DNA of 64,000 nucleotides from Eledone cirrhosa. Taxonomy: Eukaryota. Of this stretch, positions 37,592 through 38,108 are shown piece after piece (the stretch's first letter is position 1; every line of letters starts with the position of its first letter). Position numbers and translations under genes: made by a program. The stretch is from contig OZ024742.1 of assembly GCA_964016885.1 (NCBI GenBank), forward strand, positions 344,472,001 to 344,536,000, given 5' to 3'. The notes under the pieces were generated by a model. The model ran no database searches and had not been told where the DNA came from. It saw nothing but the letters and a program-made list of their open reading frames with translations.

Positions 37592-38102
37592 TATGCATAC
37601 TAGTATTTCAGTATACATATGTGGATGTACATTTTTAACTTAATTGTTTAAGCGTCAGTCATACAAAAGTGAGTTACAAACGAAACGAAATTTAATTTCG
37701 TTTCGTTATTTGTTTTTATCGTCTCCGTTGAACCGGTACGTACTCACGCTCTATGCAAATTAGTCTGCCCACTACTAATTTTCATAGAAAAAGCATATAA
37801 CGATATGTGCTTTTACGATTCTCTAGAGACGCCGGAAGATAGGTAAATATTGCTGATGAGATGTAACAACATCGAAACTAGTTCAATATTCCTTGTCTGG
37901 CTTTCTGGAGAATAGAGGAAAGGTGTTTCCTCAAAAACCAGTATGACTCTAAAAACCGGTTTGTCTGTGTGTTTACATACAGAATAGCTGGACACTGAAA
38001 TAGTGACCAGTGAAAAACTCGGTACATCTACATATGTATACGTGTGTGTATTCATATGCATACTAGTATTTCAGTATACATATGTGGATGTACATTTTTA
38101 AC

Positions 38103-38108
<6 letters not shown>
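37592..38108 (+). mobile_element. Retrozyme-like family B monomer (463-bp unit plus 54-bp terminal direct repeat)
   Basis: TATGCATACTAGTATTTCAGTATACATATGTGGATGTACATTTTTAACTTAATT occurs at 37592 and 38055. A canonical HHR lies in the middle. Confidence 0.85.
37846..37890 (+). ncRNA. Canonical type I hammerhead ribozyme
   Basis: AATATTG-CTGATGA-GATGT-aaca-ACATC-GAAA-CTAG-TT-CAATATT. It has a 7-bp stem I, a 5-bp stem II and a palindromic stem III. Predicted cut after 37883. Confidence 0.92.

Follow-up and report, generated by a model that had tools for sequence, protein, structure and literature searches.

A monomeric hammerhead retroelement copy in Eledone cirrhosa, probably inserted by PLE machinery

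The insertion described here (B) lies in a 64,000-nucleotide stretch of the Eledone cirrhosa genome, hereafter the window, and is most probably a monomeric copy of a non-autonomous hammerhead retroelement of the non-LTR retrozyme kind, inserted by the machinery of Penelope-like elements (PLEs). It belongs to a known class and bears on a published hypothesis, for which it is a useful test case. The coordinates of B, its parts, its relatives in the window (family A) and its host element are given in Table 1.

Table 1. Copy B, its parts, its relatives and its host element in the window.
Feature	Position	Strand	Description
B, whole insertion	37592-38108	+	one 463-bp unit plus 54 bp (1.12 units), non-coding
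5' copy of 54-mer	37592-37645	+	exact repeat; 5'-truncated start of second round (mini partial tandem)
3' copy of 54-mer	38055-38108	+	terminates at the fixed end site 1 of the family
Small hairpin	37639-37652	+	loop contains 3' end site 1; conserved in A1, A3 and A4
13-pair hairpin	37679-37707	+	3' foot of its homologue is 3' end site 2 of family A copies (A1, A4, A2inv)
Type I hammerhead	37838-37897	+	helix I 37846-37852 with 37884-37890; core from 37853; helix II 37860-37873
Helix III of hammerhead	37877-37882	+	one pair with palindromic loop; cut after 37883
Long hairpin	38022-38093	+	20-pair stem; 3' terminus of B 15 nt beyond
(TA)n target microsatellite	38109-38270		3' side of B; no target-site duplication
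Foldback element	35450-39293		arms 35450-36712 and 38108-39293; TTAA on both outer sides; GA...TC termini
Diverged fragment	7190-7415	+	nhmmer E 9.6e-22; decayed ribozyme; 3' end adjoins another repeat
A1	13037-13470	+	1.07-1.08 units; 27-bp exact redundancy; site 2 end; (TA)n runs on both sides
A2	19213-19629		head-to-head pair
A2inv	19213-19379	-	inverted part; site 2 end; two large internal deletions
A2fwd	19379-19629	+	forward part; site 1 end
A4	34186-34644	-	1.02 units; site 2 end; head-to-head with A3 between microsatellites
A3	34645-35217	+	1.36 units; site 1 end; head-to-head with A4

The earlier note on this DNA had described a 463-bp unit with an exact 54-bp terminal redundancy, and this description holds: the two copies of the 54-mer are identical, recur with a period of 463 (BLAST E 7e-23) and extend on neither side. 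Its estimate of about 290 bp between the unit start and the ribozyme cut was also accurate, since the cut site at 37883/37884 divides B into 292 nt on the left and 225 nt on the right. No convincing coding potential was found in the closed unit, the longest ATG frames of which comprise 19 aa (+) and 82 aa (-), and GC is 33% in the 2-kb bin 36001-38000, in line with the short non-coding unit of GC <50% expected of a retrozyme. Metazoan non-LTR retrozymes are described as having such a short low-GC unit with one type I hammerhead each, and a strongly self-paired predicted circle and monomeric 'solo' copies resembling B are likewise reported for them (Cervera and de la Pena 2020, PMC7229834; bioRxiv 10.64898/2026.07.22.740005). 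The unit is just above the 150-450 bp first given for retrozymes and within the 51-972 bp of a later survey. However, no tandem array is present here, the segments reaching at most 1.36 units with one ribozyme each, and no tandem master with two same-strand ribozymes occurs in the window. An 'active' retrozyme is defined by Li et al. (bioRxiv 10.64898/2026.07.22.740005) as a two-ribozyme tandem, with the ribozyme in at least two consecutive units; B has one and is an inactive monomer by this definition, and it is therefore filed as a monomeric copy of a retrozyme family.

The hammerhead of B is real. A structure descriptor gave four matches in bases 1-41090 on both strands and none in each of 100 block-shuffled copies, while the Rfam model Hammerhead_HH9 matched 37835-37906 with 36.5 bits (E 1.6e-07 in a 701-base search), under its gathering score of 52; at gathering thresholds no Rfam model matched in the whole window. 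The hammerhead had been called perfect, which is true of its core and of G10.1-C11.1, both intact, but not of helix III, which consists of one pair with a palindromic CUAG tetraloop or of two pairs with a 2-nt loop, nor of the cleavage triplet GUU, which is cut more slowly than GUC or GUA. GUU is nevertheless a cleavable NUH site (PMC3138052); it is found in B and in A1, the ribozyme core of which is degenerate, and GUA in A2-A4. Two B ribozymes are predicted to pair via the palindrome (-7.2 kcal/mol), with a co-fold of -33.2 versus -14.9 per monomer, and a dimer-dependent palindromic helix III is reported for most metazoan type I ribozymes (PMC4209133, PMC7229834). The same one-pair helix III and palindromic tetraloop are described in newt satellite 2 and axolotl HHR_Amex1, where the ribozyme is poor as a monomer and efficient as a dimer (PMC7229834), and helix II of A2 and A4 has a U-U pair at its base, as noted for HHR_Amex2; this likeness is one of described structure, and amphibian retrozyme units, unlike B, measure 330-350 bp and form large arrays. 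Helix II and loop 1 of B are of canonical size, whereas the minimal ribozymes of PLEs have a long helix II. The ribozyme helices keep pairing through sequence change, with five of 13 pairs altered on both sides (3/500 shuffles) and 80% paired against 29-47% in slid controls; B served as the source of the structure, and the signal lies in the contrast between B and family A.

A single ribozyme makes double self-cleavage to a 463-nt monomer impossible at the B locus: a transcript, if cut, would give 292 + 225 nt of the element and no whole unit, and a 463-nt circle, if any, should derive from a master elsewhere. The position and type of the ribozyme also set B apart from the plant-type LTR retrozyme, which carries a type III ribozyme in each long terminal repeat and a 4-bp TSD, as the ribozyme of B is of type I, single and outside the 54-bp repeat, and B has no target duplication. 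If B were an endogenised viroid-like or satellite circular RNA, of which a single copy was made from a random starting point, its size, strong branched fold and hammerhead would fit, yet this origin is highly improbable: the ribozymes in both polarities expected of viroid-like RNAs are lacking, the minus strand of the unit having no ribozyme core, at least seven related segments of differing age with fixed 3' ends lie in 41 kb, and the degenerate ribozyme pattern has no exact match in 185,579 prokaryotic genomes. On the last result, prokaryotic relatives or contamination were also rejected.

B had been taken for a separate family; it is instead a diverged relative of family A, with which it aligns along most of the unit (local score z 32.5, 0/300 dinucleotide shuffles). 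The closed units of B (463) and A3 (422) are identical at 245 of 471 columns (52%). The similarity to family A reaches z 16.0 in the stretch between the 54-mer and the ribozyme, and the 60 nt that follow the 54-mer resemble A1 and A4 (z 8.4 and 8.6), while the part beyond the ribozyme, taken alone, shows no significant similarity to that of A3 (41/300 shuffles). In A1, A3 and A4 a homologue of the 54-mer (41 of 54 columns, z 6.7) occupies an internal position and is followed by the same downstream sequence, so that the 54-mer belongs to the element. The earlier note was thus right that the 54 bp are not a TSD, and the absence of the 54-mer from other family copies, which it named as the finding that would speak for a host duplication, is not the case in A1, A3 and A4. 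That the 54-mer should be a host TSD or a local duplication around a fixed-ended 409-bp SINE-like element is accordingly hardly conceivable, despite the 100% identity of its two copies and the large target duplications said to occur with some metazoan retrozymes (PMC7229834), since the 54-mer also pairs with the internal segment 38022-38041 in a hairpin conserved in family A. For a tRNA-derived head, no tRNA gene was found in the window. Terminal redundancy is found in the relatives as well, namely in A1 (Table 1) and in A3 (about 157 bp at 92.5%).

The diverged fragment at 7190 was found with an nhmmer profile built from five copies, and a short repeat, which we presume to be a piece of a tRNA-type SINE, directly follows it at 7420-7495. 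The weak profile matches at 19942, 6195, 33698 and 11417 were dropped after inspection as microsatellite matches, and the copy inventory leaves out three more weak profile rows (35406, 6619 and 10169) and two that are self-palindromes. The 16 bases at 13021-13036, which separate A1 from the (TA)n run, have no match to the unit, a reverse-complement match being unclear. A2inv is without the ribozyme core (circle 388-419) and the whole folded domain (37-244), as if reverse transcription had skipped across the stem bases.

Insertion ends were mapped as positions on the 422-nt A3 circle, numbered from the cut. The 3' ends fall at site 1 in B (217), A2fwd (213) and A3 (213), and at site 2 in A1 (272), A2inv (273) and A4 (265), while the 5' ends are scattered (B ~160, A2fwd ~388, A3 ~60, A1 ~240, A2inv ~282, A4 ~256); the variable end of B is the left edge of the 5' copy of the 54-mer. 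The probability that six random ends should all lie within two 12-nt windows is 1.6e-4, these windows having been chosen post hoc; the test took six segments and left out the 7190 fragment, the 3' end of which at circle ~113-120 corresponds to neither site (6/7 fit). The free circular permutation proposed in the earlier note is not supported by this mapping, because the 3' ends lie at two sites (213-217 and 265-273) and the 5' ends alone vary; among the copies of the window the permutation points do differ at the 5' side, but not freely at the 3' side. A microsatellite, (TA)n or (CT)n, stands beside the 3' end in all six segments, and a comparison of the flanks of B over 4-20 nt revealed no target duplication. 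In both inverted pairs site 1 terminates the forward copy, and the inverted copy extends 52-60 nt beyond this point to site 2, a tail that compares with 30-40 nt in the values given in the papers; B itself has no head-to-head family copy beside it.

These are the features by which PLE insertions are recognised in the published descriptions: partial tandems, 5' truncation, an adjacent inverted copy, extension at one end, a microsatellite target and the absence of a target duplication (PMC8557442, PMC3846280). The 'tail' of PLEs was traced in vitro to two internal starts of reverse transcription in a stem-loop, with an AT-rich DNA target (PMC11167929), and by analogy the two 3' sites and variable 5' ends of the present family follow the PLE pattern of internal reverse-transcription start sites. 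Partial tandems with a fixed 3' end and variable 5' truncation are found in six of seven segments at two sites, head-to-head copies with an extension at one end in A2 and A3/A4, and microsatellite targets without discernible target duplication; partial tandems, 5' truncation, the head-to-head copy and the one-end extension are all described for PLEs, including Poseidon (PMC8557442, PMC3846280, PMC4209133, PMC11167929). The two putative internal starts downstream of the cut, the (TA)n targets, the lack of target duplication and the palindromic helix III are equally shared with this group of PLEs, to which Poseidon of Anolis belongs, although the start sites lie 213-273 nt after the cut in the B family and about 85-92 nt in Poseidon_Ac, as calculated from the positions given. 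Unlike autonomous PLEs, B has no reverse transcriptase or endonuclease (GIY-YIG) frame. The non-autonomous PLEs of Chlamys, such as MRC1 (PMC8557442), are alike in being non-coding, with pseudo-LTRs, head-to-tail insertions and a microsatellite bias, but they belong to green algae, mostly lack hammerheads and have 3' ends similar to those of their autonomous partners. Retrozyme repeats contain no motif naming their partner according to the review PMC7761336, whereas the ends of the B family point to PLEs; the available text of the retrozyme papers (PMC7229834 and the 2026 preprint) contains no mapping of insertion ends of the type given here.

The loop of the small hairpin at 37639-37652 is a putative start site of reverse transcription. 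This hairpin is weak (-1.9 to -5.5 kcal/mol in local folds of 31-nt stretches), and it is also present in the circular folds of B and A3. The long hairpin at 38022-38093 is contiguous only at the right end of B or on a closed circle; matches of miRNA families to it were rejected, being far under their thresholds and due to the TA-rich hairpin. A bacterial promoter scan, which is irrelevant here, gave 2 sites against 4.2 expected, and the sole terminator-like site in the bacterial scan is the 13-pair hairpin.

The cut site is crossed in five copies (B, A1, A2fwd, A3 and A4), four of which (all but A2fwd) also continue past their own 3' end. On a cleaved linear monomer, copying that began at site 1 would run out of template at the cut, about 215 nt on. 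The two sides of the cut were therefore joined in the template, which would have been a covalent circle, a helix-I-closed monomer with a template jump, or an uncut multimer. The copying of a circular (or multimeric) RNA, suggested previously, is therefore supported as far as the continuity of the template over the cut site goes, but not in its free permutation, in view of the two fixed 3' sites. Within the PLE model a circular monomer (covalent or nicked) is somewhat to be preferred as the template, and a longer linear or collapsed source could well have served instead. The circle was proposed as the template in PMC4209133 and PMC7229834, and unprocessed linear RNA was favoured in vitro in PMC11167929.

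The six segments span 1.12, 1.08, 1.36, 1.02, 0.98 and 0.59 units, and none reaches two; they come from four loci, and the span of A2inv counts its two large deletions. A span of 2.03 units computed for A4 was spurious, arising because gaps over an expanded TA run were penalised too cheaply; the value used was 1.02. Four of the six spans lie at 0.98-1.12, with P 0.0007-0.006 for a window of 0.95-1.15 under four null models and P 0.03-0.05 if any window of 0.15 unit is allowed. These near-one-unit spans modestly favour a circle. The closed unit of B is predicted to fold at -159 kcal/mol, with 66% of bases paired and z -10.5 against 60 shuffles (A3 z -6.6), and a second estimate gave z -11.3 (0/100 shuffles), in keeping with the stable fold of retrozymes, which leaves the ribozyme free to form, these z-scores being inflated by TA/TG-rich hairpins. 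Helix I re-forms across the junction in the closed fold of B, with pair probabilities of 0.63-0.94. A two-sequence consensus fold of B and A3 with 20 compensatory pairs was not counted as evidence because it was fitted to both sequences.

It is possible, but doubtful, that the same element and machinery used an uncut linear multimer produced by read-through of a tandem master, the 54 bp then being an ordinary 5' truncation in the second unit. The PLE protein used chiefly unprocessed RNA as template in vitro, where ribozyme cleavage was dispensable and ribozyme mutants inserted equally well (PMC11167929), the weak dimer-dependent helix III is of a type of which axolotl monomers cut 6% in an hour (PMC7229834), and 8/9 Xenopus dimers remained uncleaved (bioRxiv 10.64898/2026.07.22.740005). 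Furthermore, the redundancy arms of A3 differ at 10 columns, two of which are common to other copies (A1 or A2), and a single circle would not produce such shared differences. On the other side stand the four spans close to one unit with none at two, and the conservation of the ribozyme and the closed fold between units that are 52% identical. The heterogeneous arms of A3 would also suit the collapse of a longer tandem to one unit plus a partial one, by unequal recombination or in the assembly, which would presumably leave the same shape, and retrozymes commonly form arrays (PMC7229834). Such a collapse is nonetheless unlikely: the window resolves a 23-kb satellite of 24-bp units, which makes assembly collapse of a 463-bp unit improbable; the redundancies (~10, 27, 54 and ~157 bp) differ and thus do not reflect a single k-mer length; none of the four spans above one unit reaches 1.4, where collapse predicts an even spread between 1 and 2; and the host arms, being ~99% identical, left little time.

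The insertion of B by PLE machinery would involve the following steps. A master locus with at least two units would be transcribed, and its ribozymes would pair as dimers through the palindromic helix III and excise unit-length RNA, which may close, or the ends of which may be held together by helix I. A PLE protein would nick (TA)n and begin reverse transcription at site 1 or 2, each a fixed hairpin inside the RNA; copying would cross the ribozyme junction, pass its own start and, in B, halt 54 nt on, and the 5' end would be joined without target duplication. Transcription, cleavage, circularisation and the PLE partner are all conjectural in this scheme, which is built on the sequence features described above: the element-derived redundancy, fixed 3' and variable 5' ends, microsatellite targets, inverted pairs, continuity across the cut and conserved fold.

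A more specific version can be offered tentatively, in which the copies are fossils of one PLE round on a (nicked-)circular RNA, started from a fixed hairpin and stalling at its own RNA-DNA hybrid; a halt after one round would be expected of an enzyme meeting its own hybrid. It would be bolder still to suppose that both ends of one (TA)n break prime separate RNAs, giving the head-to-head pairs, and that at B the break occurred at the exact centre of a palindrome and an unrelated RNA was copied on the other side. If true, the circle reading would be direct genomic evidence for the template step of the retrozyme cycle and would give an origin for the partial tandems of PLEs.

The palindrome in question is a foldback element of 3.8 kb with arms of 1.2 kb, which are identical at 756 of 767 columns (~99%) in the outer part. 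Its TTAA flanks and GA...TC termini are the signature reported for Kolobok (PMC9587614), and by this signature the host of B is Kolobok-like. The last base of B is the inner edge of the right foldback arm. Each arm has a first pure AT run of 47 nt, which is followed by identical interruptions. Two origins are conceivable: B landed at the AT run's edge, or the palindrome was broken at its centre and received B on one side of the break and the 880-bp spacer on the opposite side. B is probably about as young as its host element; since the host arms are ~99% identical, the perfect 54-bp arms of B say little. As a family copy, the spacer (36713-37340) was rejected, having no profile or BLAST match. 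The spacer end by (TA)n, at 36713-36772 (-), weakly resembles site 2 in comparison with A4 (6/1000 shuffles), the comparisons with A1 and B not being significant (114 and 519 of 1000 shuffles).

The window also contains, at 26922-33385, a 5'-truncated PLE with an inverted copy of its 3' region alongside and with endonuclease motifs of the Hydra clade. It is (TA)n-flanked, and its frame at 29297-30705, although frameshifted, matches GIY-YIG weakly (E 0.0018) and contains CxCX5C, CxxC and CxH, motifs reported for the Hydra clade, which targets (TA)n. On co-occurrence, this PLE is a candidate partner of the B family. None of 16 comparisons with the flanks of the coding PLEs of the window was significant (best 6/60 shuffles), and no relatives of the PLE endonuclease were found at E 1e-10 among longer proteins, which is weak evidence. 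Asparagine-rich stretches lie between the PLE domains, as reported in PLEs of Adineta, the two PLE copies end about 160 nt apart, and in the minimal ribozymes, at 32661 (+) and 27622 (-), U4 is replaced by C. Hammerhead-core-like sites at 10461, 15450, 17161 and 21149 (+) failed the strict descriptor; some are near PLE fragments, namely an endonuclease end at 11903-12190 and a reverse transcriptase fragment at 15805-16299 (Pfam RVT_1 E 0.0003).

More-than-unit copying of a ligated circle by PLEs is a published proposal (PMC4209133, PMC7229834, PMC7761336), and retrozymes as non-autonomous PLEs are the thesis of Li, Clavereau and Pollet 2026 (bioRxiv 10.64898/2026.07.22.740005). The B family, which combines the PLE insertion signature with a retrozyme-type unit, bears on which enzyme copies animal retrozyme RNA to DNA and on whether circles are the template. 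Neither this family nor end-mapping or span evidence for retrozyme copies was found in searches of open-access literature, although the supplements of PMC7229834 and the preprint may list such families. Since the copies are dispersed 1.x-mers with fixed 3' ends, the distribution of their spans offers a cheap genome-wide test between a circle and a linear multimer.

By itself, the B locus is ordinary repeat content. Elsewhere in the window, broken LINE-type retrotransposons lie at 700-5500 (-) and 22069-25400 (-), with RVT_1 matches of E 1.8e-08 and 1.7e-14; by eye we take the first to be L1/Tx1-like and the second RTE-like. A palindromic segment at 8069-8714 (81% self-complementary) carries a central 51-bp tandem. 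The 24-bp satellite occupies 41092-64000 with about 959 copies at 88% matches, and its variant units recur every 2.0-2.9 kb, often at 2772 bp, which suggests higher-order repeats.
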